NCBI GenBank assembly: GCA_964499705.1
Contig: CAZCME010000002.1
Location: 1 to 64,000, forward strand
Source: an uncultured bacterium
GTDB taxonomy: Bacteria; UBA8481
DNA: 64,000 bases
Direction of reading: 5' to 3'
The notes under the pieces are model-generated. The model searched no databases and had not been told where the DNA came from. It saw only the letters and a list, made by a program, of their open reading frames with translations. Positions 15,349 to 57,324 of this stretch are shown one piece after another; the stretch's first letter is position 1, and each line of letters opens with the position of its first letter. The position numbers and the translations under genes are program-made.

Positions 15349-15422
15349 GCGCCCGTAGCTCATCTGGATAGAGCACCGGTTTCCTAAACCGGGGGTAACA
15401 GGTTCAAGTCCTGTCGGGCGCA
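15349..15422 (+). tRNA. tRNA-Arg(CCT), CCA end not encoded
   Basis: Acceptor stem GCGCCCG/CGGGCGC, D arm GCTC..GAGC, anticodon arm CCGGT-TTCCTAA-ACCGG, T arm ACAGG-TTCAAGT-CCTGT; followed by GTG, not CCA. Confidence 0.97.
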
Positions 15423-15496
15423 GTGCCGGTCATTTTGCAAGCCTGTCCAGTCCAGGCTCGCGATATTATTCGGAGCCTTGCGATGGCGTGACGCTC

Positions 15497-15525
15497 TTGA
15501 CATCTCCGTCTTCAGTCGAGACAAT
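15497..15525 (+). promoter_or_regulatory. Sigma70-type promoter of the deoC fusion, leaderless geometry
   Basis: TTGACA-17 nt-GACAAT-6 nt-ATG(15532); no SD. Confidence 0.7.
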
Positions 15526-15531
15526 CCGTGC

Positions 15532-17031
15532 ATGGAAATCGACAAGGATCTCGTCGAGAAGATCGCCCGCGAAGTCATCAGCCGTCTCGGCGCCACGCCG
15601 GGATTCATCCCATCCTCCGCCACATCCGGTTCGCTCCTGGCCGTCCTGACCTGCGGCGTCGTCGGGATCGACGAGGCTGTCGCGCAGCTCCAGAAGGCCC
15701 GCGCGGGATATGCGTCCCTGACGGTGTTTCTCGCGCAGTGCGCGGATGGAAAGTCCGGCGAGGAAATTTCCAACCGCGTTCGTCCCGATCGTGTCCTGAA
15801 GGCGACGCAGGGCGCGTCCGTCGATCAGGCTCTGGAAGGCGCCGCCGCGGTCGTTTACCCGAACTGCACGATGACCCTGGCGGCCAAGATCGGCATGCTC
15901 ATCTCGGACTCGACCTCCAGTTCGATCGCGGTCTCCGCCCTCGTCCGCCGATTGCCGGTCACGATCGCGACGAACTCGATGCTCGCCAGCCTGGCGAAGG
16001 GCGACTATGTGCCCCCCGAATTTCAGGCGGTCGGCGCGGAGCATATCGATCGCTTGAAGCGCGCGGGCGTCCGGACCTGCGATATCCGGGAGATGGCGGC
16101 GACCGCGGCAGGAGCGAAATCCTCGGTCGGGTCCTCTTCCTGGCAGGCTCTTCCTGTTACCGTGACCCACGAACTGCCGGCCTCCGCCGCGATCCAGTGC
16201 CAGCCGGTCCTGCGGGATCTCGAAGCCTTCGTCCGCTCCTCCATGGCCGACGATCCCTCCTGCCAGCCCTGCGCCGCCAAGCTCCACGCGGCCATCGAGA
16301 AATGCATCGAAGCCGGAGCCTGCCGCATCGGAACGGCGGGCACGCCCGACACCGCGCACGGCAGCGGCGGCGTCGCCGGGATGATCGACCATACTTTATT
16401 GAAGGCGAACGCGACTCCTCAGGAAGTCGAGAAGCTCTGCGCCGAGGCGCGCCAGTACAAGTTCAAGTCGGTCTGCATCAATCCCGGCTACATCGCGATG
16501 AGCAAGCGGCTCCTCCAGGGTTCGGGTGTCCTCGTCTGCACCGTCATCGGATTTCCCCTCGGGGCGACGACGACCGGAGCGAAAGCCGCGGAGACGCGCG
16601 ACGCGATCGCGGACGGCGCCGATGAGATCGACATGGTCATCAACATCGGCGCCCTGAAAGCCGGCGATTACATGAAGGTGAAGCACGACATGGAAGAGGT
16701 CGTCGAGGCGGCGAAGGGCCGGACCGTGAAGGTCATTCTCGAGACGCATTTTCTGACGGACGAAGAGAAGGTCGCCGCGTGCCAGCTTGCCGTCGCCGCG
16801 GGAGTTCACTTCGTCAAGACCTCCACCGGATTCGGCGGCGGCGGAGCCACGGCCGAGGACATCGCGCTGATGCGCAAGGTCGTCGGCCCGAACCTGGGGG
16901 TCAAGGCTTCCGGCGGCGTACGGACGAAGGAAGACGCGGAGAAGATGATCAAGGCCGGCGCGAACCGCATCGGCGCGTCCGCGTCCATCGCCATCGCCAC
17001 GGGGAAGAAAACGGAATCCAAGGGATATTGA
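15532..17031 (+). CDS. deoC: Deoxyribose-phosphate aldolase with long N-terminal extension (putative encapsulation peptide, flavoprotein-like domain, Cys-rich linker)
   Basis: C-terminal ~220 aa: [42 protein letters not shown]; about 280 extra N-terminal residues. Confidence 0.93.
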
Positions 17032-18203
17032 GCTCCCGCTTCAATCGCGTTCTCGTCATCGTCCTCGATTCCGTCGGTGTCGGCGAGATGCCGGACGCGG
17101 CCGAATATGGCGATGTCGGTTCAAACACGCTCGGTAATCTCGCCCGCGCCGTCGGAGGATTGAAGGCGCCTCATTTCGGCGCGCTGGGATTGGGAAACAT
17201 CATCGAGGTCGCCGGAGTGCCTCCGGTCGACAAGCCCGCCGCATCCTGGGGCAAAGCTGCGCTGGCTGCTCCGAACAAGGATACGACCTCCGGCCACTGG
17301 GAGATGATGACCGCCGTCCTCAAGACGAAGCTCAATACTTTTCCCGATGGTTTTCCGGACGAACTCATCGACCTGTTCAAGCGCGAGGCGCATGTCGATG
17401 GCGTCCTGGCGAACAAGGTGGCGTCCGGGACGGAAGTGATCGCGGAGTATGGCCAGGAGCATGTGCGGACGGGCTGGCCGATCGTGTACACGAGCGCGGA
17501 CTCCGTCTTCCAGATCGCCTGTCACGAAGAATCGTTCGGCCTCGAACGATTGTACGAAATATGCGAGTCGGCGCGGCGCCTTCTCACGGGGAAATACGAA
17601 GTGGGTCGCGTCATCGCCCGGCCCTTTCTCGGGACGCCCGGTTCCTACAAGAGAACGTCCAATCGCCACGATTATTCCCTGGAGCCCCCCGTGCCGACCG
17701 TTTTGGACAGGTTGTGCGAGAAGAACATTCCGGTGCTCGGTATCGGCAAGATCCAGGACATCTTCGCCGGGCGCGGCGTGCCGGAAAACAACAAGACGAA
17801 GGACAACGCTGACGGCGTCGCGAAGATCCACGCCGCGCTGCAGTCGCACGCGAAAGGCTTCATCTTCGCCAATCTTGTCGATTTCGACTCGCTCTTCGGG
17901 CATCGCAACGATGTGGCCGGCTACGCGCGCGCCATCGAGGAGTTCGATGTCGCGCTGCCGGGCATCCTCCGGAAATTATCGGACCGCGATCTCCTCATCA
18001 TCTGCGCGGATCACGGCAACGATCCGACGACGCCATCGACCGATCACAACCGGGAATATTGCCCGATCCTCGCGTGGCGCTCCGGCGGCACCGGCCGCAA
18101 CATCGGCATCCGCCGGTCCCTGGCCGACATCGGCGCAACCGTGGCCGATGTCTTCGGCGTCACCCCGTCGGAAGGGGAATCGTTCCTGTCTCTCGTCGCC
18201 TGA
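17028..18203 (+). CDS. deoB: Phosphopentomutase
   Basis: [61 protein letters not shown] start overlapping the deoC stop (TTGA). Confidence 0.96.
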
Positions 18204-18520: not shown

Positions 18521-18568
18521 TGCGTTGCCCGTGTGTCGCGTTCGATTCTCTGGCATAATGCCTTCATC

Positions 18569-19810
18569 ATGGCACTCGTAACCTGTCCCGGTTTTGTCGA
18601 CGCGCATTCGCATGATGACACGGCGCTCTTGTCGGATCCCGCGCGGCCTATCAAGAGACGCCAGGGGATCGTTCATCAGGTCATCGGCAACTGCGGTCTC
18701 ACTCCGTTTCCTCTCGTTCCCGGAGACCAGCCCGAGTACGAGAAGTTTCTTCACTCTGTTCTCGGAGAATGCCCCTGCCGCGACGAGGGGATTCATGAGC
18801 GGACGGGAGATTTCATCGGGAAGATGCCCGCGAACATCTCCACGCTCCTCGGCTACAACAGTCTCCGCGTCCGTCTCTTCGGTTACCTGGACCGCCCGCT
18901 CGATGCCGGCGAGCGCAGGCTCGCGCGGAAGGGAATCCAGGACGCGCTGGATGGGGGCGCGATAGGGGTTTCGATCGGTCTCGCGTATCTGCCCGCCGTG
19001 GCCGCGGACGCGGAGGAGATTTCCGCGATCGCGGACGTATCGCCCCTGCTGACTGTCCACATGCGAAATGAATCGACGCATGTCCTGGAGTCGCTCGATG
19101 AGATGGGCGCCGCGGTCTCGTCGGCGCGCGCGCGCGGATCGCGGTGCCACCTCCACATCTCCCACCTGAAGATCGCCGGCGAAAGAAACTGGCCCCTGTG
19201 GGATCGGCTCCTGCAACGCGTTCTTTTCTGGCGCGAAGAACTCGGGATCACGTTCGACCACTATCCGTTTTCGTTCGGCTCCACCGGCCTCGCCGCTTTG
19301 CTGCCGCCGGAATTCGGACGCCTGCCCCGGAAGGAACTCGCGCGCGTTCACGCGTCCGCGATCGAGGAACGCTTCGCCGATACGGACTGGGAAAACTACA
19401 TCCATTTCGCGGGCCCCGAGAATCTCACCTTCGCGGGCCTCACGTACTGGCCTCATCTGAACGGCACGACGCTGGAGGGGCAGAATGTCGCGGAGCTGAT
19501 CCGGGACATGGTCCTGTCCGAACCGAATCCCGCGATTCTCATCAAGGGCCAGAGCGACAAGGTGATAGATGAGCTTCTGAAATTGCCGTTCGGCTGCATC
19601 GGCAGCGATGCGCTCCCGGACGTGCCGGAACATCCGCGCCTCACCAGCACGTTTCCCGAATATCTCGCCCGCATGAAACGGCTCGGCCAGACACTGGAAT
19701 TCGCGGTGGATAAGGCGTCGAGACTTCCTCGCAAGATCTTCGGAATCAGGAATGAAGACGAGATTTCGATCGATCGGGACTCCTTCCGGATCGGTTTCTC
19801 CCCGGCCTGA
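18569..19810 (+). CDS. Amidohydrolase, N-acyl-D-amino-acid deacylase-like (short form)
   Basis: PGFVDAHSHDD, GNCG, HMRNE, HISHLK, IGSDA, HPRLTSTFP motifs. Confidence 0.85.
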   Translation: MALVTCPGFVDAHSHDDTALLSDPARPIKRRQGIVHQVIGNCGLTPFPLVPGDQPEYEKFLHSVLGECPCRDEGIHERTGDFIGKMPANISTLLGYNSLRVRLFGYLDRPLDAGERRLARKGIQDALDGGAIGVSIGLAYLPAVAADAEEISAIADVSPLLTVHMRNESTHVLESLDEMGAAVSSARARGSRCHLHISHLKIAGERNWPLWDRLLQRVLFWREELGITFDHYPFSFGSTGLAALLPPEFGRLPRKELARVHASAIEERFADTDWENYIHFAGPENLTFAGLTYWPHLNGTTLEGQNVAELIRDMVLSEPNPAILIKGQSDKVIDELLKLPFGCIGSDALPDVPEHPRLTSTFPEYLARMKRLGQTLEFAVDKASRLPRKIFGIRNEDEISIDRDSFRIGFSPA

Positions 19811-26349: not shown

Positions 26350-26898
26350 ATGCAAATAAGCACAACGTTTCGACAGATGCCGTCGTCCCAGGCGCTCAGG
26401 GAATACGGCGAGTCCAAGGTCCTGAAACTGGAGAAGTTCTTCAACGGCCTGATGGAGGCCAAGGTGACGTTTTCCGCGGAGAAGACGTCTCAGAAGGCCG
26501 AGGTCACGATCACGGCCAACGGCATCAAGATCCGCGGCGAAAATTCCGCGGCAGACGCCTACGCCGCCCTCGATTCCGTCATCGACAAGCTCTCCCGCCA
26601 GCTCCGCAAATACCAGGACAAGCTGAAGGCCCACAAGCCCGCTCTTCCCACCAAGGAAATGTATCGCCACGAGGTGCGTTCGTCCGAGTCGTTCGAGCCC
26701 GAGTCGAAGAGCGCGCAGCATACCATCGTCTCCAGCAAGTCGTTCCCCCTGAAGCCGATGTTTCCCGACGATGCGGTGATGGAAATGGAATTGTCCGACG
26801 ACGACTTCATGGTCTTCATCAACGCGGAAACCAGTGGCGTCAACGTGATCTATCGACGGCGCGACGGCAATTACGGCCTCGTCGAACCCGATCGATAA
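26350..26898 (+). CDS. hpf: Ribosome hibernation promoting factor (long HPF)
   Basis: YAALDSVIDKLSRQLRKYQDK and C-terminal KPM..DAVMEMEL..VNVIYRRRDGNYGLVE. Confidence 0.93.
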   Translation: MQISTTFRQMPSSQALREYGESKVLKLEKFFNGLMEAKVTFSAEKTSQKAEVTITANGIKIRGENSAADAYAALDSVIDKLSRQLRKYQDKLKAHKPALPTKEMYRHEVRSSESFEPESKSAQHTIVSSKSFPLKPMFPDDAVMEMELSDDDFMVFINAETSGVNVIYRRRDGNYGLVEPDR

Positions 26899-26937
26899 AC
26901 TTTAGCCCATGAATCAGACCAAGAAGAGGATGACCCG

Positions 26938-27405
26938 ATGAAACTTTCTGATTTGCTGACCGAGAACGGCATCAGCGTAGCGCTGGCGGCCCGCGACAAG
27001 CGCGGCGTCATCGAGGAGATGGTGGATCTGCTCATGAAATCCACCAACGGCGTGACGGACAAGAACGCCGTCATCAAGGCCGTATGGGAACGCGAGGAAC
27101 TGATGTCGACGGGCATCGGCCAGGGTGTCGGCATCCCGCACGCCAAGACCAACGCGGTGGACAAGCTCCACGCCGTCTTCGGCAAGTCCGAAGCGGGCGT
27201 CGACTTCTCCGCTCTCGACGGCAAACCCGTCCACCTGATCTTTCTCCTTGTGGCTCCGGAGGATCAATCGGGCCCGCACGTCAAGGCCCTGGCCAGGATC
27301 TCCCGGCTCCTCAAGCAGTCGTATTTCAGACAGGCTCTCCAGGAGTCCCGCAAATCCCAGGAAGTGTTGACGATCATCCGCGAAGAGGAACTGAAGAGCG
27401 CCTGA
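26938..27405 (+). CDS. ptsN: PTS EIIA, Ntr/fructose type
   Basis: REELMSTGIGQGVGIPH, DFSALDGKPV, HVKALARIS; position after hpf. Confidence 0.85.
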   Translation: MKLSDLLTENGISVALAARDKRGVIEEMVDLLMKSTNGVTDKNAVIKAVWEREELMSTGIGQGVGIPHAKTNAVDKLHAVFGKSEAGVDFSALDGKPVHLIFLLVAPEDQSGPHVKALARISRLLKQSYFRQALQESRKSQEVLTIIREEELKSA

Positions 27406-27409
27406 AGGC

Positions 27410-27487
27410 AATACTGAATAAGGAATACTGAATCATGAATGCCGACAATGGAAATCATTCAGCATTCCCTGTTTCCTGTTCCGTATT
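27410..27487. repeat. Inverted heptamer-array element between ptsN and hprK
   Basis: Left AATACTG AATAAGG AATACTG AAT; reverse complement of the right arm reads AATACGG AACAGGA AACAGGG AATGCTG AAT. Confidence 0.6.
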
Positions 27488-27495
27488 GAATTAAG

Positions 27496-28470
27496 ATGGA
27501 TACCGATAACGAGGTAATCATCCAGGAGCTCGTCGATGACCTGAGGAGCGCGCTGGATCTGCGGGTCATCGCCGGCACTTCCGGCACGATGCGCGCGATC
27601 CGGGATCCCGAGGTCCAGCGACCCGGGCTCGCCCTCGCCGGCTTCCTCGATTACTTCCGCCCCAATAATCTCCAGATCATCGGCCAGACGGAGCTCGCTT
27701 ACATGGCGACGCTCGGCGACGAGCTGATGCTGAAGCGCTGGGAGGATTACCTCGGCAATCTTCCGGCCGCCATCATTGTCGCCCGCGCCCTCGTCCTGCC
27801 GGAGGCGCTTCTCGACAAGGCCAGCGAGCTCGGGATCTGCGTCCTCTCCTCGCCGCTCCGGACCGAGGATATCTCCCACAAGATCGAGCTGTATCTCGAA
27901 CGCGAACTGGCGCCGTCGGCGATGATGCATGGCGTCCTGATGGACGTTTTCGGGCTGGGCGTGCTGATCCTCGGAGATTCTGGCGTCGGCAAATCGGAAG
28001 CGGCCCTGGAGCTTCTCCAGCGCGGCCACAGGCTCGTCTCCGACGACATCGTGGAGATCAAGAAGATGCGGCAGGACGTGCTCATCGGGACGAGTCCGGC
28101 TTTGACGAAGCACCACATCGAGATCCGCGGGCTCGGCATCCTCAATATCCGCCAGCTCTACGGCGCCTCCGCCATCGTCGACGAGATGAAGCTCGACATG
28201 GTCGCGCAGCTGGAGATCTGGAAGGAAGGATTCGAATACGACCGGCTCGGCCTCGAGCAGGAGACGTTCGAGATCCTCGGGAACGAAGTCCCGAGCGTCC
28301 TGGTGCCGGTGCAGCCCGGCCGGAACATCGCGATCATCATCGAGGTGGGCGCCATGAACCAGCGGCTGAAGAACATGGGAGTTCATGCGGCGGAGGAATT
28401 CAACAAGCGTCTGAACGAGATGCTCGTGTCCGGCCACGGCATGACGAGCGGCACGGGGGAGCAGAAATGA
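27496..28470 (+). CDS. hprK: HPr kinase/phosphorylase
   Basis: RPGLALAG, HGVLMDVFGLGVLILGDSGVGKSE, LVSDD, IEIRGLGI, PGRN. Confidence 0.96.
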   Translation: MDTDNEVIIQELVDDLRSALDLRVIAGTSGTMRAIRDPEVQRPGLALAGFLDYFRPNNLQIIGQTELAYMATLGDELMLKRWEDYLGNLPAAIIVARALVLPEALLDKASELGICVLSSPLRTEDISHKIELYLERELAPSAMMHGVLMDVFGLGVLILGDSGVGKSEAALELLQRGHRLVSDDIVEIKKMRQDVLIGTSPALTKHHIEIRGLGILNIRQLYGASAIVDEMKLDMVAQLEIWKEGFEYDRLGLEQETFEILGNEVPSVLVPVQPGRNIAIIIEVGAMNQRLKNMGVHAAEEFNKRLNEMLVSGHGMTSGTGEQK

Positions 28471-29006
28471 TGGCCGACGAACGTTCGGGTACGGGCGGAG
28501 AAACGGGCGCGGCGACGGACGCTGCCGCTGCTCTGCCGCTGCTCATCATCGCGTCCCACGGAGCCGTGGGCCAGGCCGCACTGGAGACGTGTTCGCAGAT
28601 CCTGGGGCCGATCGAGCCCGCCGCCGCGATCGGGCTCGATGTTCACGGCAGGCTCGAAGACGTCGAGCGCGGGATCGTCGCCGTCCGGGAGCATCACGGC
28701 CGGGAGCGGCCGACGATCATCCTCGTCGATCTCTTCGGCGGCTCGTGCGCGAATGTCGCGGCGAAGATCCTGAAGTCCCGGACCGAACAGGATGCTCCCA
28801 TCCGTGTCATCGCGGGCTTCAACATCCCGATGATCATCGAGTTCGCCTTTTCCCGCAGCAAGTACCCGCTCGACAAGCTGGCCGACCGGATCATCGAGGC
28901 CGGGAAAAAAGCCTGCCTCGATCTGAACGCGAAGGTTCTGGCTCGGCCGGCGCAAGTTGCTCCGAAGGATGCGCCTCCACCCGGGAAAGAACCCGGAACA
29001 GCATGA
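28467..29006 (+). CDS. PTS mannose-family EIIA
   Basis: IASHG phospho-His, VDLFGGSCAN, AGFNIPM. Confidence 0.88.
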   Translation: MMADERSGTGGETGAATDAAAALPLLIIASHGAVGQAALETCSQILGPIEPAAAIGLDVHGRLEDVERGIVAVREHHGRERPTIILVDLFGGSCANVAAKILKSRTEQDAPIRVIAGFNIPMIIEFAFSRSKYPLDKLADRIIEAGKKACLDLNAKVLARPAQVAPKDAPPPGKEPGTA

Positions 29007-29491
29007 TCGTCCTCGCCCGCATCGACGACCGCCTGATCCACGGCCAGGTGACCGTGGGCTGGTCGCGATTCCTCGACATCGAGAAGATCGTGGTGCTGTC
29101 CGACGACATCGTGCACGACGACATGCAGAAGTCGCTCCTGGCGATGGCCGTGCCTGAGAGCGCCGACTTCGACGTCGATTCGGTCGCGGGCGTCGCGGCC
29201 AAGCTTGCCCATCCGGAATATACATCCTGCCGTACGCTCCTGCTCGCCGCTTCTCCTTCCGAGTTCAGGCGTCTCGTGGTCGAATTCGGATTCAGGCTTC
29301 CGGAGGTGAACGTGGGCGGCCAGAGGTACGCCGCCGGCACGCGGAAGGTGTGCGACGGCGTCCTCCTGACGGATGAAGCCTACGCCGATCTCTGCGCGCT
29401 TCGCGACGCGGGCGTCTTCGTCGAGGTCCGCATGATTCCTTCCCATGACAAGAAGGATCTCTTCAAGCTCTATCCGGGTGATCGCGCATGA
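29003..29491 (+). CDS. PTS mannose-family EIIB
   Basis: MIVLARIDDRLIHGQV, VNVGG; ATGA overlap at 29003. Confidence 0.92.
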   Translation: MIVLARIDDRLIHGQVTVGWSRFLDIEKIVVLSDDIVHDDMQKSLLAMAVPESADFDVDSVAGVAAKLAHPEYTSCRTLLLAASPSEFRRLVVEFGFRLPEVNVGGQRYAAGTRKVCDGVLLTDEAYADLCALRDAGVFVEVRMIPSHDKKDLFKLYPGDRA

Positions 29492-30186
29492 ATTTTACGC
29501 CGCTCGTCCTGGCCGCGCTCGTCGCGGGCCTCACGGCGCTCGACAATGTCCATGTCTTCCAGTGGATGCTCTCGCGCCCCGTCGTGACGGGGCCGATCGT
29601 GGGAGCGATCATGGGAGATCTCACGTCGGGAATGATCTGTGGAGCATGGATCGAGCTGATATGGCTGGGCGTTCTTCCCATCGGAAATTACACGCCTCCG
29701 GATGCCCAGATCACGGCCGCTTCCGCGGCGACGGCCGCCGCCGTCTGGTCGGCGGATTACGAATCCAGCAGGACGGCGGTTTCGCTGCTGGCCGTGCTGG
29801 CTTTTGTTCCGATCGGAGTCTTCTCCAAGCTGATGGATCTCTCGCTCCGCAAGCATCTCGCCGTTAAAGCCGAAGCGATTCTCGCCTGCGCTCCGCCGTA
29901 CAGGACCGGCGGTATGATCGTGGCGAGCATCCTGCCGGTCTTCGCGAAGGCGGCGTTCGCGGTCGTCATCGTATTCGTGATCGCGGTCGTGATGAAACCC
30001 GTGATCGTGCTGCTCACATCGGAGCCCCGCGTATCGAAGGGATTGTTCTTCGCCGCATCCCTCGTGCCCGCGCTCGGGATGGTCCAGCTGGCCCGCTGCA
30101 TCGGCGCGAAGGGCCGGGAGAAGTGGATCCTCCTCGGCGTTCTGGCCGCGACGGTCGTTTTCCTCGCCCGGGGTGTGAAGCTATGA
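29488..30186 (+). CDS. PTS mannose-family EIIC
   Basis: SRPVVTGPIVGAIMGD, ELIWLGVLPIGNYTPPD; hydrophobic. Confidence 0.88.
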   Translation: MNFTPLVLAALVAGLTALDNVHVFQWMLSRPVVTGPIVGAIMGDLTSGMICGAWIELIWLGVLPIGNYTPPDAQITAASAATAAAVWSADYESSRTAVSLLAVLAFVPIGVFSKLMDLSLRKHLAVKAEAILACAPPYRTGGMIVASILPVFAKAAFAVVIVFVIAVVMKPVIVLLTSEPRVSKGLFFAASLVPALGMVQLARCIGAKGREKWILLGVLAATVVFLARGVKL

Positions 30187-30932
30187 CGTTTTCGGAGCGG
30201 TTCATCATCTTCGTGCGACTGCATTTCCTCCAGCTCCTCTGGAATTTCAAGGGCATGCAGCACTTTGGTTTTCTCTCCGCGCTCCGGCCGGTGTTGCGGA
30301 GGCTTTATTCCGGCGACGCCTACATCGAGGCGGAGAAACGCCAGGGACAGTTTTTCAACACGCATCCGTGCTTTGCTCCGATCTGCGTCGGCGTCGTCGC
30401 GCGGCTCGAGGAGGAACTGAAGGCGGGGACGTTTCAGAAGGCGGAGATGATCCCGGTGTTGAAAAACAGGATGAGCGGACCGCTGGCGGCGGTCGGGGAT
30501 GCGTTTTTCTGGGAGACCGTGAGGCCGATCGTCGGGAGCTGCGCGGTATTCGCCGTTTATGCGTTCGGCGCGGGCGCCCCGTCCGCCACGCTCGGGATCG
30601 CCTGCTTTGTTCTCGTCTACATTTTTCTCGTCGAATCGATCCGGTGGCGGGGCCTCGGATGGGGCTATGCCTACGGTCTCGGCGTCGTCGATCTCCTGAA
30701 GAAGAAGGATTTTCATTCTTCCATGAGAACATTGAGAAACGTCGGCGCTCTCGGCCTGGGCATCGCGACTGTCTTCTTTCTCGCGGGCGATACGGAGGCC
30801 GTCACGTGGGAACATGGAGCGCGAGCGGCGGCGATGGGGCTCCTGCTCTGGGGCGCCATGAAGAAACTTTCTCCGACCCTCATGCTCTACCTGCTGGTCG
30901 CCGGCGGCATGGCGCTGGGGATGTTCCTGTGA
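30183..30932 (+). CDS. PTS mannose-family EIID
   Basis: WNFKGMQHFGF, FFNTHP, GPLAAVGDAFFW; ATGA overlap at 30183. Confidence 0.9.
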   Translation: MTFSERFIIFVRLHFLQLLWNFKGMQHFGFLSALRPVLRRLYSGDAYIEAEKRQGQFFNTHPCFAPICVGVVARLEEELKAGTFQKAEMIPVLKNRMSGPLAAVGDAFFWETVRPIVGSCAVFAVYAFGAGAPSATLGIACFVLVYIFLVESIRWRGLGWGYAYGLGVVDLLKKKDFHSSMRTLRNVGALGLGIATVFFLAGDTEAVTWEHGARAAAMGLLLWGAMKKLSPTLMLYLLVAGGMALGMFL

Positions 30933-31194
30933 AGGTCGAGCGGACGTTCACGATCGAGAACCGCGCGGGTCTGCACGCGCGGGCGGCGGCGATGCTGGTG
31001 CAGACCTCGGGACGATTCCAGTCGGAGGTCTTCATCACGAAGGACGACGAGACCGTCAACGGCAAGTCGATCATGGGCGTCATGATGCTGGCGGCGCTGT
31101 GCGGCAGCATGATCCAGGTGAGCGTGGAGGGCAACGACGCCGATGCGGCGATGACCGCCATCGCGGATCTCATCCAGAGAAAGTTCGACGAGCC

Positions 31195-31198
<4 letters not shown>
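30929..31198 (+). CDS. ptsH: Phosphocarrier protein HPr
   Basis: NRAGLHARAA (His15) and NGKSIMGVMML (Ser46); GTGA overlap. Confidence 0.95.
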
Positions 31199-32928
<1,730 letters not shown>

Positions 32929-51894: not shown

Positions 51895-54800
51895 GTGCTT
51901 GATATCCAGTTGACGCAGGCTGGCTCCATCCCGGTTCTCGTTCTCCGCGGTTCCATGGACGCGCCCGACATCCCCGTCCTCACCACCTATCTCGCGCCGC
52001 AGCGCCCCATGCTCGTCATCGACATCCTCAACGTGAAGCGTCTCCTGCCGGAAGGCGGCGAGATCATGGTTCGTGCCGCCAGGAAGGCCAAGCGCCAGGA
52101 GGGCCACGTGATCCTGGCCGCCAATGGAACGGACGCGATTGTCGATCAGTTGCTGGGAGTGGCCGGAGCCTCGCGCGAATTTCTGCGCGCCAAGGCGCGC
52201 GAGGAGGCGATCAAGTCCGCCGAGAGCCTCCTGCGCCAGCGTCTCACGAAATCGCTTTCGAGCTCGCGAGTCGCGCCGAAGCTCTCCCATGCCGAGGAAC
52301 AGGCGGCGACGCAGGAAGAGCCGAAGGAGAAGCATTGCCCCAATTGCAAGGCGAAGGTCGCGCTCGATGCCGACCGCTGCTATCTCTGCGGCATGCTCCT
52401 GTCCGACCGGCAGACCATGCTCTTTCACAAGCCCGAGTTCGAACCCTGTCCCAGCTGCCAGGCGAACATGCTCATCGGTTCCGACAAGTGTCCGCTCTGC
52501 GGTTGGACGAAGCCGCAGGATAAGGAACCGGAAAAGGCCGAGCCTGTTCCTGAAAGCGCTCCGCCGGCCGCGGCTTCCCCCGGGGATGACGCCGTGCGAA
52601 AGGCGAAATCCGACCTGGATCAGATTCGCAGGGAGCTGGCCGATTCCGCGAGAGAGCTGATCGACCTCCAGGAAAAACGCTCCGTGATCCAGCAGGAACT
52701 TTCCGAACTCGAGCTGAAGAAATTCGAAATCGACGGCAGGTTCAGCGAGCAGGAACGGCGCGCGGGACAGCGGATCGCGGAACTGGAGGGCAAGGCCGGG
52801 CTCATCGAGGTGACGCTCACGGAGATGCAGAAGAAGCGCGAGGATCTGGCGCGCGAGATCGCGGACCAGGAAGCGAAGATGTCCAGCGTGACCTTGACCC
52901 TTGGCGCGGCCGCTGTCGGAGGCCTCACCGCCGCCGCGATGACGGATTCGGCTGTCTTCGGGGCGACGGAGATGCATAAGGCCGAGGCCGACGCCTTGAA
53001 GGAGGAGATCGCGACGTTGTCCGCGCGCCGGGATGAACTGCAGGCGGGCATCGAGCAGATCAGGATGCTTGCGGAGAAGACGCGGAGCGAGGCCGTCGAC
53101 GAGATCGAGCGCGAGCGAAAAGCGCTGGCGTCCGAAACGGATGAAGCGCGCCTCAAGTTGAACGAGACACGGGCGGAGGCGGAACGCGCGCGCGGAGAAG
53201 TGGAATCCACCCGCGAGGAATTGGCGGGGCTCGGATCGGAAAAGCAGCGCATCGTCGCGGAGCTCGAGCGGGCGCGGAATGCGGCGGCCGCGTCCGCGTC
53301 CGAGGAGCGCGCGAAGATCGAGGCCGAAGTGGCCCGTGAAACGCAGGCGGCCCGGGACGAGATCGGCCGGCAGCAGGCGGCGGCGGACGCGGTGCGGGCC
53401 GAGGTCGCGCGACTGGCGGACAAGCGCGCGGAGATGGAACTAGAGATCGCGACGCAGACGGATCAGGCGTCGCAGGTGCGCTCGGCCGTGGAGGAGGCGC
53501 GCGGGCGTATCGCGGAGTTGCGCGCCGAATCCGATGCCGTTCAGGCGGAACGGGATGCGGCGCGTGATGAACGGGATCGGGCGATCCGCGAGAAGGAGGA
53601 CTCCGTCCAGGCGCTCCAGGATCGCTTCGACGGCCTGCGCGCGGATTTCGAAGCGCGGGCCGCCGAGAAGGGCGGGATCGAGCGCGAACTCGATCGGCTG
53701 CACGGACTTCTCGAAACGGAGCGGCTCGATATCGACCGGACGCTGACGGCGGAGAGAGCCGCGCTGGTGGAGAAATTGTCCGCTGATTGCGGAGAGGTCG
53801 AGGCGCTTCGAGCAGAGCGTGAAAAAATCACGGCCGAACGCGACCAGGTTTCCGCGGCTGTTCTTGCCGTCCGCGAAGAACTGGCGAAGGTCGAGGCATC
53901 GCTTGCTGATGCGCGCGCCTCGAAGGAGGCCGCCGATGCGGCGATTCGCGCGGCGAGGGAAGACGAGGCGGCCGCGGCCGAGTCGACCGCGCGGTTGGCC
54001 TCGGTTCGGCACGAACTGGATGCGGCCGGGAAGACGCTGGAGGAGATCAAGGCCGCCGCGATTTCCGCCGCGCAGGATCGGGACCGGATCGTCGCGGAAA
54101 CCACGCAGGAAGCCGCGTTGCGCGCCCAGGCGCTCGGCGCGGAGGCCGACATGCTCGCGTCCTCGCTTGATCGCGAGAGGATCGAGCTCGGCCGCATCCA
54201 CGACGATCGCGCCGCGGAGGAAGAACGCGCGCGGCAGTTGTCCGCGACGCTCGCGGAATTGCAGGCGCGGCATGACGAACTTCTCTCCCGCATCGGCGAA
54301 TCGGAGCAAGCCGCGGTCCCGGCGGAGCCCGTGGCCGGAACATCGGTGGAAGAAATCAGGCAGGTGCGAGGCGAAGCCGCCGAGCTGATGGCCGCGGCGG
54401 AACGCCTGCGCATGGAAGTGGAGCATCGTCGCGGCGAGCTCGCGGGCATTCATCATGAGCTCGACGCGCTCCGCCTGGAACGGAATGAAGTGGAGCGCGA
54501 AGTCCAGGATCGTCGGCAGGCGGTGGAACGCGAGCTGCTGGAAGAGCGTGAGTCGCAGGCGGCGGAACTTCGCGAGAAGCGCGAGGAAATCGAGCGCGAC
54601 GAGAGCAGCCGGCGCGAGGAAATCGAGCGCCAGATCGAACTGCGGCGTACGGATGCGGATCGCGACCAGGAAGCTCAGCGCGCGGAATCGGAGCGATCAT
54701 GGACGATTCGCCGCGAGGAAGCGGAGAAAGCCCTGGCTGAGATTGAGTCCAGGTCGGCGGCCGCGGCACGGGAAGCGGAGCGATGGCAGGCGGAGCAGGC

Positions 54801-57324
54801 GGCGAGAAAAGCGGAAGTGGATGCGCTGGAGGAACGACGGCAGGCGCTCTCGCGGATCGAGTCGGAACACGCCGCACTGGCGACGGAGTGCGATCGGCGG
54901 CGCGGCGAGCTCGAAGAGATCGAGTCCCGCATCGCGGAGGCGCGCCGTGAGATGGAGGCCGCCGGACGTCCATCAGTTCCGCCGGAGAGCGCCTCGGCAT
55001 CCATCGATGCGCTGACAAGGACGCTCCTCGATGCGATCCAGACGAATACACAAGCGATCGAGAAGCTCCGGACGGACGCGACCGCGACTCCTTCGACCCC
55101 GGCGGACGCCGCGGCGAGCGACGAGCGATACGCCCGCATGCGAGATCGGTTCGATGCCGCTGTGAAGGAAGCCGACGATGCCAGGCGCGCCGGCCGGGAC
55201 CTGGAGTTGCGACTGGAGACGAGCGAGCATCGCGCGGAGGAAGCGGGGCGTCGCCTGGAAGAAGCACTGCGGCGGATGGAGGAAGCGGAAACGCGCGCGA
55301 GAATGATCGATCGCGGCGCATCCGAAGCGGAGCGGCGCATCGCGGAAGCGGAACGGCGTGCGGATGACGCGGTGCACCGCGCCGAGGAGGCGGAACGACG
55401 CTCTCGCCAGGCCGCCTCCGTCTCGATGTCGATGGCAGGACCGGTGTCAGCGGAGATCGATGAATGGCGGGACAAGCTGGAAGCGGAGCGGAGCCTGCGG
55501 GAATCGCTGGAGCAGAAGTACAACGCGGCCGCCGCCGAACTCGACCTCGCGAAGATGCGCATGTCCCAGGTGAACGATCCCTATCGCGATGTGATGAAGG
55601 ACGTCGAGCGGGAGCGCAAGGGCGTCGAAGAAGCGATCGAACGCCTGAGAAAAGAGCGGGACTCCATACGGCGCGAGAAGGAATTCGAGCTGAAGTCGAT
55701 GGAGATCCTGAAACGCGAGATCGGGCGGTGGATGCGCGAAAGAATCAAGATCTCCTCCGAGCAGGATGCGGAGCTCATCATGGCGATGCGCTCCGAGATC
55801 GACAGGCTCAGGGCCGAAAAATACGAAGCCGGCTCCGCCGAGGGAATGCCGCCCGCGGCTGCCGCGCCCGACTTGACCCTGGATCTGCAGAAGCTTCGCG
55901 ATGAAAACATGCGGATCCGGGATGAGCTGGCTCGGTTGAAGCAGGAGTCAAGTGTCGCGGATGCGGGAAAGATAGGGCTCGGCGAAACGGTCGCCCGCGA
56001 AAAGGACGCCCGCCTCGCCGCCGAAAAATCGGCGCAGGAATTCAAGCTTCGCATTGCCTTCCTGGAGGAAAAGCTCGGCGTACTCGAACGCGCTTCGGCG
56101 GGCAGCACGGAGTCCGAGGCCGCGATGCGGACGATGCGGACGCAGATCGAGAATCTGGAGTCGAAGTTGAAGGAAGCCGCGGTCGAACGGAGCGAGCGGG
56201 AGCGCCTGGAGAAGACCATCGCGGATCTGGAAACGGAAGTACGGACGCTGTCCGAAGAAAAAACGGAGCAGGAGAAAAGCCGTGCTGTCGCGGAGAAAAT
56301 GCGCACGGAGTTGGAGGAAGCGACCGAGGCCGAATCGCGCGCCGCCCTTGCTGTCCGCGATCTCGAAGCGGAGCGGGATGAACTGGTCCGGAGGCTTGCG
56401 GAGAAAGAAACCGCGGACCAGGCGATGCTGGCCGGAAAAACGGGCGCCTTGCAGGGAGCGCTGGACAAGGCGCAACGGGAAGTGGAGGAGGCGCGCGAGG
56501 AGATGCGTGACGCGGCGGCGGAGATCAAGGCCCTTTCCGAGCGCCTCGAGGCCGAGATGCGTGGAAAGGACGAAGCGGCCGCTTCGCTGGCCGGATTGAG
56601 AAGGGAAAGCGATGCGCTGACCCGCCGCCGTGAAGAACTTCTCGCGGAATTGGCGCGTGCCAAGGAAGAGTTGGCACGCGAACGGGAAGCGCAAAGGAGC
56701 GGGGGGGCTATGGGCATGGCAGCGGCGGTGGCCGCGGCGGCCGCAGTTCCGATCGTTCCGGAGGTTTCTGCTCCCGTTGAGCAAGTGATCGAGCCGGTTT
56801 CGGAATCAGTCGAGCCCCGCGAGGAAGTGCGGGAGGAAGAACCGACTCCGCAGGAAACAACAATCACCGCGGAGCTCGAAGGAGTTCCCGGATCCGCTCA
56901 GACTTCGCACGAATCGGCGCATTCGGTTACAGCTGATCAGAGAATCGAGCCGGAACCGAAACCCGCCGAACTGATCCCCTCCGAGCCGCCCGCTCCGGAG
57001 TTTGTCGCGCGACCCGAGGAGGAAGCGCTCTCGATCGAGGCGCTGAGGCAGCGCGCCTTCGACGAGGAGGACGCGGGGCGATCCACGGAGGCGTTCCGGA
57101 TCTACAACTTGATCCTGATGCGCGACGCGGGTAACATCTCCGCGCTGCACAATCTCGCGCTCATCCGCTACCGCTCGGGCGACATCGACGGAGCGCTGCT
57201 GCTTTGCGCGAGGATGGAAGGCCTGAAGAAGGAATTACCGCGCGAATCCCGCAAGCTCATCGCGGAAGTCCGGCGCCATCGATCTTCCCCGTCGCCGGTC
57301 TGGGGCAAGTTGTTCGGCAGGTAG
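51895..57324 (+). CDS. Giant protein: STAS-like domain, double zinc ribbons, long coiled coil, C-terminal TPR-like module
   Basis: 1809-aa ORF; N-terminal beta/alpha STAS-like pattern; CPNC/CYLC/CPSC/CPLC; more than 1300 aa rich in E/R/A; ALHNLALIRYRSGDIDGA. Confidence 0.8.
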   Translation: MLDIQLTQAGSIPVLVLRGSMDAPDIPVLTTYLAPQRPMLVIDILNVKRLLPEGGEIMVRAARKAKRQEGHVILAANGTDAIVDQLLGVAGASREFLRAKAREEAIKSAESLLRQRLTKSLSSSRVAPKLSHAEEQAATQEEPKEKHCPNCKAKVALDADRCYLCGMLLSDRQTMLFHKPEFEPCPSCQANMLIGSDKCPLCGWTKPQDKEPEKAEPVPESAPPAAASPGDDAVRKAKSDLDQIRRELADSARELIDLQEKRSVIQQELSELELKKFEIDGRFSEQERRAGQRIAELEGKAGLIEVTLTEMQKKREDLAREIADQEAKMSSVTLTLGAAAVGGLTAAAMTDSAVFGATEMHKAEADALKEEIATLSARRDELQAGIEQIRMLAEKTRSEAVDEIERERKALASETDEARLKLNETRAEAERARGEVESTREELAGLGSEKQRIVAELERARNAAAASASEERAKIEAEVARETQAARDEIGRQQAAADAVRAEVARLADKRAEMELEIATQTDQASQVRSAVEEARGRIAELRAESDAVQAERDAARDERDRAIREKEDSVQALQDRFDGLRADFEARAAEKGGIERELDRLHGLLETERLDIDRTLTAERAALVEKLSADCGEVEALRAEREKITAERDQVSAAVLAVREELAKVEASLADARASKEAADAAIRAAREDEAAAAESTARLASVRHELDAAGKTLEEIKAAAISAAQDRDRIVAETTQEAALRAQALGAEADMLASSLDRERIELGRIHDDRAAEEERARQLSATLAELQARHDELLSRIGESEQAAVPAEPVAGTSVEEIRQVRGEAAELMAAAERLRMEVEHRRGELAGIHHELDALRLERNEVEREVQDRRQAVERELLEERESQAAELREKREEIERDESSRREEIERQIELRRTDADRDQEAQRAESERSWTIRREEAEKALAEIESRSAAAAREAERWQAEQAARKAEVDALEERRQALSRIESEHAALATECDRRRGELEEIESRIAEARREMEAAGRPSVPPESASASIDALTRTLLDAIQTNTQAIEKLRTDATATPSTPADAAASDERYARMRDRFDAAVKEADDARRAGRDLELRLETSEHRAEEAGRRLEEALRRMEEAETRARMIDRGASEAERRIAEAERRADDAVHRAEEAERRSRQAASVSMSMAGPVSAEIDEWRDKLEAERSLRESLEQKYNAAAAELDLAKMRMSQVNDPYRDVMKDVERERKGVEEAIERLRKERDSIRREKEFELKSMEILKREIGRWMRERIKISSEQDAELIMAMRSEIDRLRAEKYEAGSAEGMPPAAAAPDLTLDLQKLRDENMRIRDELARLKQESSVADAGKIGLGETVAREKDARLAAEKSAQEFKLRIAFLEEKLGVLERASAGSTESEAAMRTMRTQIENLESKLKEAAVERSERERLEKTIADLETEVRTLSEEKTEQEKSRAVAEKMRTELEEATEAESRAALAVRDLEAERDELVRRLAEKETADQAMLAGKTGALQGALDKAQREVEEAREEMRDAAAEIKALSERLEAEMRGKDEAAASLAGLRRESDALTRRREELLAELARAKEELAREREAQRSGGAMGMAAAVAAAAAVPIVPEVSAPVEQVIEPVSESVEPREEVREEEPTPQETTITAELEGVPGSAQTSHESAHSVTADQRIEPEPKPAELIPSEPPAPEFVARPEEEALSIEALRQRAFDEEDAGRSTEAFRIYNLILMRDAGNISALHNLALIRYRSGDIDGALLLCARMEGLKKELPRESRKLIAEVRRHRSSPSPVWGKLFGR

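Follow-up and report, generated by a model that had tools for sequence, protein, structure and literature searches.

A stretch of 64,000 nucleotides from an uncultured bacterium (hereafter the window) encodes a DeoC aldolase that is extended at its N-terminus by a helix, an alpha/beta domain and a Cys-rich segment and is followed directly by deoB, and the question it raises is whether such a protein belongs to a bacterial microcompartment (BMC) when no shell gene lies near it. It is fairly probable that the fusion protein is the signature aldolase of an SPU-type microcompartment in its Flav+DERA form, a cargo protein with an HFCD trimerising module that is encoded at a satellite to the shell locus. 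The gene pair and the parts of the fusion protein are as follows:

15497..15525, + strand, weak sigma-70-like promoter match (TTGACA, 17 nt, GACAAT), ending 6 nt before the start codon
15532..17031, + strand, flavoprotein-like/DeoC fusion gene (499 aa plus stop)
15532..15594, + strand, encapsulation-peptide-like amphipathic helix (residues 1-21; AlphaFold helix 5-20, block pLDDT 80-89)
15595..15630, + strand, variable Ser/Gly/Pro linker (residues 22-33; pLDDT <50 at 22-29; length differs among homologues)
15631..16119, + strand, HFCD-fold (PF02441-like) flavoprotein-like domain (residues 34-196; pLDDT >90 for most of 31-190)
16120..16194, + strand, disordered, poorly conserved linker (residues 197-221; pLDDT <50; length and sequence vary among homologues)
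16195..16335, + strand, Cys-rich helical hairpin (residues 222-268; C223, C244, C247, C258 and C264), the pre-DeoC extension of BMC-type aldolases
16369..17028, + strand, deoxyribose-phosphate aldolase TIM barrel (residues 280-499; pLDDT mostly >95)
17028..18203, + strand, deoB, phosphopentomutase (TTG start at 17028; overlaps the upstream coding sequence, including its stop, by 4 nt)

The fusion frame opens with ATG at 15532 and runs for 499 codons to a TGA at 17029-17031. A start of the form M/L-(E/D/Q)-I-D-R, as encoded at this ATG, is found in seven of the eight close homologues, the remaining one starting six residues later, and a longer frame from TTG 15478 is unlikely because the homologues begin like the product of ATG 15532. 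The promoter-like site was the only one found in a promoter scan, against a mean of 0.7 in shuffled sequences, and is not above chance. From the N- to the C-terminus the protein consists of an amphipathic helix, a linker, an alpha/beta domain of ~165 aa, a disordered linker, a helical segment with five Cys and a complete DeoC, an order common to all eight close homologues in an alignment of nine sequences (63-72% overall identity). The original prediction had given the same order of helix, Ser/Gly/Pro linker, alpha/beta domain, Cys-rich linker and DeoC, and every protein string that it quoted is present. Conserved in eight homologues together with five invariant Cys and an invariant helix core, the architecture is no chance open reading frame. 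Residues 1 to ~280 matched no family at E<=1 in a scan of Pfam and NCBIfam, and an AlphaFold model of residues 1-280 has a mean pLDDT of 84.0.

The C-terminal part is a complete DeoC, matching TIGR00126 over residues 282-488 (profile 3-209 of 211; 8.8e-84; 280.2 bits, cut-off 117.3) and PF01791 at 66.5 bits against a cut-off of 23.8. D367, K400, K429 (in FVKTSTGF) and K458 (in GVKASGG) are present and invariant in all nine sequences, and we equate D367 and the lysines with the catalytic Asp and Lys residues of E. coli DERA (K167, K201 and D102). The DeoC part is 59% identical to an ordinary DeoC from Staphylococcus and 58-63% identical to BMC-type ones, and so the barrel alone marks no BMC clade. 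The downstream gene matches the phosphopentomutase family NF003766 at 7e-156, and DeoB lacks an N-terminal extension, since residue 4 already aligns with profile position 2. The complete DeoC and the overlapping deoB thus both stand as first proposed. Pairing of deoC with deoB is an ordinary arrangement for cytosolic enzymes.

The absence of shell genes nearby, which had also been claimed, was confirmed in two ways. Among 56 open reading frames of the window chosen by GC-frame pattern, a Pfam search found no PF00936, PF03319, PF00171, PF06130 or PF02502. A six-frame tblastn search of the window with 23 proteins encoded by neighbouring genes in related loci, BMC-H, BMC-P, BMC-T, aldehyde dehydrogenase, PduL and PduS among them, matched only the fusion, deoB, PP2C and LeuRS genes, plus a weak PduS match (E=0.006) that we take as probably due to chance. 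There are consequently no shell, aldehyde dehydrogenase, PduL, PduS or RpiB genes within 15.5 kb upstream or 46 kb downstream of the fusion gene.

Four related loci (L001 to L004) were found with nine close sequences, none of them the locus of a distant fusion or of a stand-alone flavoprotein. L001 is a full locus encoding PduL, BMC-H, BMC-P, an aldehyde dehydrogenase (NF011927, 612 bits), a PduS/RnfC-like protein and a PduT-like BMC-T, after which come a hypothetical gene, a 5'-nucleotidase gene, a GGDEF gene, the fusion gene and deoB. L002 has the order BMC-T, hypothetical gene, 5'-nucleotidase, GGDEF and fusion; L003 is cut at the fusion gene; and L004 has transketolase genes in the 3.5 kb upstream. 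Shell genes therefore lie upstream of the fusion gene in two of the four loci, and the fusion gene is followed by deoB in all three that extend downstream (L001, L003 and L004), with the order deoB, PP2C, LeuRS common to the window, L001 and L003. The set of BMC-H, BMC-P and acylating aldehyde dehydrogenase genes that accompanies an SPU-type BMC DERA is absent from the window, complete in L001 and partial in L002. The proposed tie to a microcompartment is hence upheld through relatives, in which BMC shell genes precede the fusion gene (L001 and L002), as do, in L001, genes for core enzymes. L003 and L004 come from the phylum Hydrogenedentes; Dataset S1 of PMC11585597 includes one SPU2 locus from a Candidatus Hydrogenedentes bacterium, and the supplements of PMC8217296 gave no match to Hydrogenedentes. 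Upstream of the fusion gene, the shared gene order ends at the single tRNA gene that ARAGORN found in the window, and the upstream genes of L001 have no tblastn match in the window:

15349..15422, + strand, tRNA-Arg(CCT), the upstream boundary at which synteny with L001 ends

The predicted structure of the alpha/beta domain is of the HFCD flavoprotein type. The Pfam scan returned no PF02441 match at E<=1 for the fusion protein, which falls short of the gathering score; of 48 remote homologues, 37 reach that score, 4 fall below it and 7 have no match. Compared with the PDB by Foldseek, the AlphaFold model had 68 matches at E<=0.001; those shown are without exception HFCD/UbiX-family flavoproteins, the top ones being UbiX, EpiD, TvaF, HAL3 and MrsD at a probability of 1.00 (7km2_B at 4.5e-07). 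Target TM scores were 0.57-0.69 to UbiX, EpiD, TvaF, MrsD, HAL3 and DmrB, with 6jls at 0.69. A profile of stand-alone relatives searched against the PDB likewise recovered HFCD chains (6jls at 2e-08, 3mcu at 1.3e-07 and 1qzu at 4.3e-06), and a local HMM of the flavoprotein unit matches residues 1-203 of the fusion protein. In the protein Atlas, PF02441 clusters scored 0.80-0.83, below the 0.9 level, and are a lead only. The HFCD-type domain that had been proposed from the letters is borne out by the structural matches to UbiX, EpiD and TvaF. An RpiB-like identity was also considered, since RPI-DERA fusions exist, and was rejected: there is no PF02502 match, and the Foldseek matches shown all belong to the HFCD/UbiX group.

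The domain keeps the P-x-x-T...A-K-x-G...D motif of the fold (P110, T113, K119, G121 and D126). The PAMN-like motif reads ATNSM, and the position aligned with the cysteine-decarboxylase His, judged from one printed TvaF alignment and the family alignment, is neither His nor conserved; the mapping of both is partly our assumption. Residues 30-200 in three copies gave a predicted trimer score of 0.89 against 0.01 for the best of three controls, with runs agreeing in at least 95% of contacts and a partner pLDDT of at least 90. Of 30 proteins solved as one-chain pairs, 20 passed the same threshold, as did 1 of 23 known as single chains; these counts apply only roughly here, as a custom alignment was used and FMN was included but unscored. 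Likeness to solved HFCD trimers, rather than binding, may account for the high score.

Between this domain and the barrel, the five Cys of the hairpin are invariant in all nine sequences, and the segment is predicted to form helices at 223-238 and 242-260 (pLDDT 63-76). Short BMC-type DeoC proteins such as P0058 have a homologous segment. The 75 residues that precede DeoC contain four or more Cys in 63 of 64 long and 50 of 58 short BMC-type proteins, and C-x2-C-x2-C is found in 44 of 64 and 19 of 58, respectively; in the clade of the window the latter motif has been remodelled and consists of C-x2-C and three further, scattered Cys. This conserved motif of four or more Cys ahead of microcompartment-type DeoC domains is unexplained, and no published description of a metal or Fe-S centre at the site was found.

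The fusion looks frequent in bacterial metagenomes within the matches listed: among 111 newly listed DeoC matches, 47 of the 51 long proteins match the HMM of the flavoprotein unit, 44 of them beyond the helix. Within the closest 120 matches, short DeoC proteins (278-352 aa) carry a like helix and, after it, a Cys-rich segment, an arrangement that matches the extension reported for SPU DERAs (PMC11585597). On the DeoC tree, the flavoprotein-like domain was gained or lost at least six times, and it is missing entirely from a close relative with 80% identity, P0058. The helix and flavoprotein-like unit also occur by themselves, in stand-alone proteins 164-297 aa long whose alignment begins at residues 1-9. 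Eight of these were scanned: five matched TIGR02536 'ethanolamine utilization protein' and four the PduM C-terminus, in each case weakly and below threshold. PF02441 flavoproteins have been recorded in EUT2B, EUT2D and GRM3 loci (PMC4207490).

An alternative view of these two parts, possible if unlikely, is that they form an active redox module inside the compartment and not a mere scaffold, the flavoprotein-like domain binding flavin and the Cys-rich segment a metal or Fe-S centre, for example for NADH re-oxidation or electron passage to a relay of the PduS/PduT type. The HFCD fold with its retained motif, the frequent Cys ahead of DeoC and the PduS-like and PduT-like electron-relay parts encoded in L001 agree with such a role, as does the report by Axen et al. 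that flavin-binding domains are frequent in BMC loci (PMC4207490). Against it, the domain has diverged and does not reach the Pfam threshold, this very clade has a remodelled C-x2-C-x2-C motif, and repeated gain or loss of the domain, with its absence from P0058, is more in keeping with an accessory part than with an essential redox partner.

At the N-terminus, I11, R13, E14, V15, R18 and L19 of the helix are invariant in the fusion protein and its eight close homologues, and the hydrophobic pattern recurs in 59 of 64 long DeoC proteins, 54 of 60 short ones and 40 of 44 stand-alone flavoproteins. The hydrophobic moment of 0.449 is reached by 8.5% of shuffles of the helix's own residues, which is not significant, and amphipathicity alone is therefore not distinctive. 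The likeness to BMC cargo claimed for this helix holds on other grounds: the element equals that heading short BMC-type DeoC proteins and stand-alone BMC-type flavoproteins, and the ordinary DeoC from Staphylococcus (P0064) begins directly at the barrel, without the helical extension that is a feature of BMC DERAs. An N-terminal extension is reported for all SPU DERAs (PMC11585597), and GFP-tagged Hodarchaeales enzymes bearing encapsulation peptides were recruited to shells, whereas versions with the peptide deleted were not (PMC12747264).

The helix also bears on a second, rather unlikely alternative, that the protein is relic cargo whose shell locus was lost or never kept. The fusion protein would then work as an aldolase in the cytosol, paired with DeoB for ordinary salvage or catabolism, with the helix and flavoprotein-like domain persisting as oligomerisation parts or neutral baggage. 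The lack of any BMC gene in the 64-kb window, the break in upstream synteny with L001 and L002 right at the tRNA gene and the commonplace nature of the gene pair in the cytosol are all compatible with such a loss. A search with the BMC-T of L001 found 15 close orthologues, none on a contig as long as that of the window (482,048 bases), a negative of little if any weight because L001's own protein was also not returned. The invariant helix core speaks against a relic. A full-length SPU DERA bearing its encapsulation peptide was insoluble when expressed without a shell (PMC11585597), and an unused helix should therefore be selected against. Satellite loci with PF01791 genes that bear encapsulation peptides and lie at a distance from the main locus are moreover documented in genomes with HO-type BMCs (PMC8217296). 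As a separate and only circumstantial observation, two BMC-T orthologues come from contigs whose lengths, 160,954 and 9,585 bases, equal those of the contigs of two fusion proteins (P0007 and P0061, respectively).

The original prediction did not recognise the fusion from characterised proteins, and here it did not hold: the fusion type is already known from a 2025 bioRxiv preprint, which describes Flav+DERA proteins with encapsulation peptides, terminal or between domains, in microcompartment operons of Hodarchaeales (PMC12747264). The protein in the window resembles these Asgard enzymes in having an N-terminal flavoprotein domain, a PF01791 DERA, a predicted encapsulation peptide and an SPU-type pathway. 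As described there, the Hodarchaeales proteins are archaeal and encoded inside the shell operon, whereas the fusion reported here is bacterial and encoded with deoB away from shell genes; the preprint terms the fusion 'uncommon in BMC'. Like the DERA of SPU BMCs (Dwyer, Sutter and Kerfeld 2024, PMC11585597), the protein combines a class I DeoC with an N-terminal amphipathic helix that is absent from ordinary DeoC, and it shares the pre-barrel segment with short BMC-type forms. The SPU6 enzyme has an extension of only ~70 residues and an RpiB-like partner protein (PMC11585597), whereas the window protein has an HFCD-fold domain of ~165 residues between the helix and the Cys-rich segment, with no RpiB gene nearby. 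A small alpha/beta domain is likewise fused to a BMC aldolase in the RPI-DERA of SPU3 loci (PMC11585597; PMC4207490), for whose RPI part a packaging role has been proposed (PMC11585597), but the partner domain in the window is of the HFCD fold and lacks a PF02502 match.

The stand-alone flavoproteins of BMC loci (PF02441; TIGR02536-related) share the helix, linker and HFCD-like domain and can be aligned from residue 1 to about 200, but they end in a PduM-like '...TPLARD...GI..' tail where the fusion protein has the Cys-rich segment and DeoC; an NCBIfam scan gave no TIGR02536 match for the fusion protein. The fold, the central P..T..AK..G..D motif and the predicted trimer are common to HFCD flavoproteins such as UbiX/Pad1, EpiD/MrsD/TvaF, CoaC/HAL3 and DpaB, from which the domain differs in its sub-threshold Pfam score and, judged by inspection, apparently in its unconserved decarboxylase His and altered PAMN. 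It is very improbable that the protein has nothing to do with microcompartments and is a divergent HFCD-like enzyme with the helix as a structural part only, joined to DeoC so that substrate is channelled during nucleoside catabolism; the missing shell genes in the 64-kb window and the statistically unexceptional amphipathicity would allow it, but short DeoC proteins without the flavoprotein-like domain begin with the same helix, the fusion gene sits beside BMC loci in L001 and L002, and published Flav+DERA fusions sit in microcompartment operons (PMC12747264).

Under the preferred reading, as cargo of an SPU-type microcompartment, DeoB, which lacks a targeting extension, would convert deoxyribose 1-phosphate to deoxyribose 5-phosphate in the cytosol, and the N-terminal helix would carry the fusion protein into the shell. 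The HFCD-fold domain would most likely act as a trimerising module, and together with DeoC, assumed to be a dimer as reported for DERA, it could cross-link the cargo into a core. We infer that the two-gene module lies apart from a shell locus elsewhere in the source genome, as a satellite, its counterparts in the closest sequenced relatives standing just downstream of the shell locus. A bolder extension, which we regard as doubtful, is that the predicted HFCD trimer and assumed DeoC dimer form a self-assembling scaffold that nucleates SPU-type cores in lineages without the RpiB-like partner, with the Cys motif binding a metal or Fe-S centre and the module recruited though encoded apart. If true, the signature enzyme of the organelle would possess, through the scaffold and the centre at the Cys motif, its own site for redox sensing or electron relay.

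Few bacterial organelles are as widespread as SPU-type microcompartments, which are nevertheless barely characterised, and a flavoprotein-aldolase fusion described as unusual for Asgard archaea appears to be frequent among bacteria. The N-terminal unit of the fusion protein is the same module as that of the uncharacterised stand-alone EUT/GRM flavoproteins, which links two unexplained parts of BMC biology. The signature aldolase can be encoded with deoB away from shell genes, and surveys limited to the neighbours of shell genes would therefore overlook it. The conserved Cys motif and the predicted trimer provide simple, testable hypotheses for how the cargo core of these organelles may be assembled.

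The fusion gene runs from an ATG at 15532 to a TGA at 17029-17031 and encodes 499 residues. This ATG was favoured over a TTG at 15478 because the N-termini of homologues align with it: the whole architecture is common to eight homologues of 491-515 residues, seven of which begin M/L-(E/D/Q)-I-D-R, with the remaining one beginning six residues later. The aldolase is complete (residues 282-488 against TIGR00126, 8.8e-84, 280.2 bits, cut-off 117.3), and deoB, with a TTG start at 17028, shares 4 nt with the upstream coding sequence, stop included; the original description of a complete DeoC with deoB overlapping its stop was therefore confirmed. The match of the deoB product to NF003766, the phosphopentomutase model (7e-156), already begins at residue 4, which leaves no room for an added N-terminal part. 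The following features flank or include the fusion gene:

15349-15422: tRNA-Arg(CCT) gene, 110 nt upstream of the fusion gene
15532-17031, forward strand: fusion gene
18533-19810: amidohydrolase-like ORF between deoB and the PP2C gene (NF006560, 1.1e-11, far under the cut-off)

The DNA is 62% G+C, and 56 window ORFs were chosen for a GC-frame pattern like that of real genes; a Pfam run on them returned only housekeeping and transport genes, without a bacterial microcompartment (BMC) domain, EutN/CcmL, aldehyde dehydrogenase (AldDH), PduL or RpiB. A six-frame tblastn search with 23 proteins encoded in related loci, among them BMC-H, BMC-P, BMC-T, AldDH, PduL and PduS, matched only the fusion, deoB, PP2C and LeuRS genes in the window, apart from one extra weak match (E=0.006) taken as chance. 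The lack of shell genes nearby, as originally noted, therefore holds across the window. Elsewhere in the window, 26350-32928 carries genes for a ribosome hibernation factor, PTS EIIA-2, HPr kinase, mannose-family PTS EIIA/IIC/IID and enzyme I, which suggests that the lineage has an HPrK/PTS regulatory system. A 1,809-aa ORF at 51895-57324 has a UPF0547 zinc-ribbon as its sole Pfam match, and this stretch is unusual in composition (G+C 0.665, GC skew up to 0.146, AT skew up to 0.29).

A genome scan yielded four loci with a homologous fusion gene, L001-L004, from 195 pattern matches. In L001, where the N-terminal part is 57% identical, the fusion gene and deoB lie downstream of genes for PduL, BMC-H, BMC-P, an acylating AldDH (612 bits against NF011927), a PduS/RnfC-like protein and a PduT-like BMC-T, and a small hypothetical gene, a 5'-nucleotidase gene and a GGDEF gene lie between the BMC genes and the fusion. 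L002 has the order BMC-T, hypothetical gene, 5'-nucleotidase, GGDEF, fusion; the L003 sequence (Candidatus Hydrogenedentes) breaks off within the fusion gene; and L004 (Hydrogenedentota) has transketolase genes upstream within its 3.5 kb. Downstream deoB, PP2C and LeuRS are common to L001, L003 and the window, with one extra, differing gene in between in the window and in L001 (an unrelated 271-aa ORF in the latter) and none in L003. The window thus represents this same chromosomal region, but its upstream side lacks the shell locus. Synteny with L001 and L002 stops at the tRNA-Arg(CCT) gene, which may be a rearrangement or excision point. A 161-aa hypothetical gene adjoining BMC-T in L001 (6138-6623) weakly matches the EutQ N-terminus (2.7e-06) and the C-terminal portion of TIGR02536, and its product has the same '...TPLARD...'-type tail that ends stand-alone BMC flavoproteins. 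Dataset S1 of Dwyer et al. (PMC11585597) lists a locus of the sugar-phosphate-utilising (SPU) type SPU2 in a Candidatus Hydrogenedentes bacterium, and HO-type BMC genomes are described by Sutter et al. (PMC8217296) as having PF01791 genes with encapsulation peptides (EPs) at sites distant from the main locus.

Two AlphaFold models, one covering residues 1-280 (mean pLDDT 84.0) and one the whole protein (86.4), were concordant and gave the following layout:

Residues 5-20: helix
Residues 22-29: disordered linker
Residues 34-196: confident alpha/beta domain
Residues 197-221: disordered linker
Residues 223-238 and 242-260: two helices (pLDDT 63-76) bearing C223, C244, C247 and C258, with C264 directly after
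Thereafter: short linker, then TIM barrel (pLDDT mostly >95)

The five cysteines, the helix core (I11, R13, E14, V15, R18, L19) and the DeoC residues D367, K400, K429 and K458 are invariant in 9/9 sequences.

Residues 1 to ~280 have no Pfam or NCBIfam match at E<=1. When residues 1-280 were used as the query of an exhaustive phmmer search, 49 proteins scored E<=0.001. They comprise one close fusion, four DeoC fusions at greater distance and 44 stand-alone proteins, 164-297 residues long (mostly ~260), in which the alignment mostly begins within the first few residues. With the close fusion left out, 37 of the 48 reach the gathering score of PF02441 (Flavoprotein), four fall below it and seven have no match. 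A profile of the stand-alone proteins and the window's part matched TvaF (6jls, 2e-08), DpaB (3mcu, 1.3e-07) and human PPCDC (1qzu, 4.3e-06) in the PDB; the nominal best match, a designed TIM barrel, was a repeat artefact with no single significant stretch. Foldseek returned 68 matches at E<=0.001 for the AlphaFold model, and those listed are all UbiX/Pad1, EpiD, TvaF, MrsD, HAL3 or DmrB (prob 1.00, target TM 0.57-0.69). Together, the Foldseek matches, the PDB profile matches and the relatives' PF02441 scores bear out the predicted flavoprotein fold, of the HFCD/UbiX type, although a direct Pfam match is lacking; the domain is too divergent in sequence for Pfam detection. On inspection of the alignments, the central P..T...AK.G...D motif is retained, the residue aligned with what we take to be the decarboxylase His differs, and the presumed PAMN position reads ATNSM.

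Prediction of a trimer from three copies of residues 30-200 scored 0.89, compared with 0.01 for the best of three controls, and the runs share at least 95% of contacts with pLDDT >=90. The score mark is attained by 20/30 solved one-chain pairs and 1/23 single chains, counts that are only rough here because our own alignment was used and FMN was included. The predicted interface comprises the conserved stretches 114-126 and 154-179. Solved HFCD trimers exist, and the score may therefore reflect likeness only.

The helix and the Cys-rich segment are elements of the BMC type of aldolase. A search with residues 215-499 was confined to proteins of 274-874 residues, and among the best 120 matches 111 were new, 60 under 400 residues and 51 longer. 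Most short DeoC proteins consist of an amphipathic helix, a linker, a Cys-rich stretch in which C...C-x2-C-G-x-C is common, a helix with G-A-x-R-I/V-G at its end, and DeoC. This layout is consistent with the N-terminal extension reported by Dwyer et al. (PMC11585597) for all SPU deoxyribose-phosphate aldolases (DERAs) and treated there as a putative EP; the main text of that paper names cysteine only for RPI and in methods. At least four Cys occur within the 75 residues ahead of DeoC in 63/64 long and 50/58 short proteins (from a set of 124, two without a recognisable DeoC start being left out), and this motif may bind a metal or an Fe-S centre. The window's clade has a remodelled form of it, with five invariant Cys that are scattered (window 16195-16335, residues 222-268).

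A local HMM of the stand-alone flavoproteins, all 44 of which went into it, matches 60 of the 64 long DeoC proteins, a set containing the window's protein and 12 previously found fusions, and none of the 60 short ones; three of the 60 matches span the helix only. P0058, a short relative of 321 residues on a 1,316-base contig, shares 80% identity with residues 218-499 and keeps the helix but has no flavoprotein-like domain, so that the domain is either dispensable or was secondarily lost. In a FastTree phylogeny restricted to the DeoC domain (121 rows), the window's protein sits in a supported clade of 13, 11 of which bear the flavoprotein-like domain. Of the two members that lack it, P0060 has a public gene call of 288 aa that appears to be a shortened call of a 510-codon ORF in L004 (3582-5114); this frame has a tblastn match to window residues 1-279, and its N-terminal domains appear to have been overlooked by annotation. 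Such a start-site problem is described by Dwyer et al. (PMC11585597). Other short rows may be truncated calls too, and therefore the at least 16 changes in domain presence that the tree needs, six of them forced by well-supported branches, are an upper bound.

In a full-text literature search on DERA, microcompartments and flavoproteins, a 2025 preprint on Hodarchaeales (PMC12747264) was, by title, alone in treating DERA in microcompartments. It reports that most Hodarchaeales microcompartment operons encode a DERA with a fused flavoprotein domain, a combination it calls 'uncommon in BMC', and that EP-bearing enzymes, Flav+DERA included, entered shells only with their EPs. The fusion type is therefore already in print, and its original description as unrecognised does not stand. 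According to Axen et al. (PMC4207490), PF02441 flavoproteins occur in EUT2B, EUT2D and GRM3 loci.

We infer that the fusion protein would be encapsulated and that a shell locus would lie elsewhere in the same genome. A 5'-nucleotidase and a nucleoside phosphorylase, the genes for neither of which lie within the 64-kb window, would supply deoxyribose 1-phosphate; cytosolic DeoB would convert this to deoxyribose 5-phosphate; and encapsulated AldDH and PduL would handle the aldehyde, with PduS/PduT-type parts carrying electrons out. The flavoprotein-like domain would most likely serve as an oligomerising part that helps to build the cargo core, the main alternative being a putative active flavin and metal site. 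New here is a bacterial fusion that is coupled to deoB and sits apart from the shell locus, along with evidence that bacterial metagenomes frequently encode the fusion and that its N-terminal unit is the module also known as the stand-alone BMC flavoprotein.
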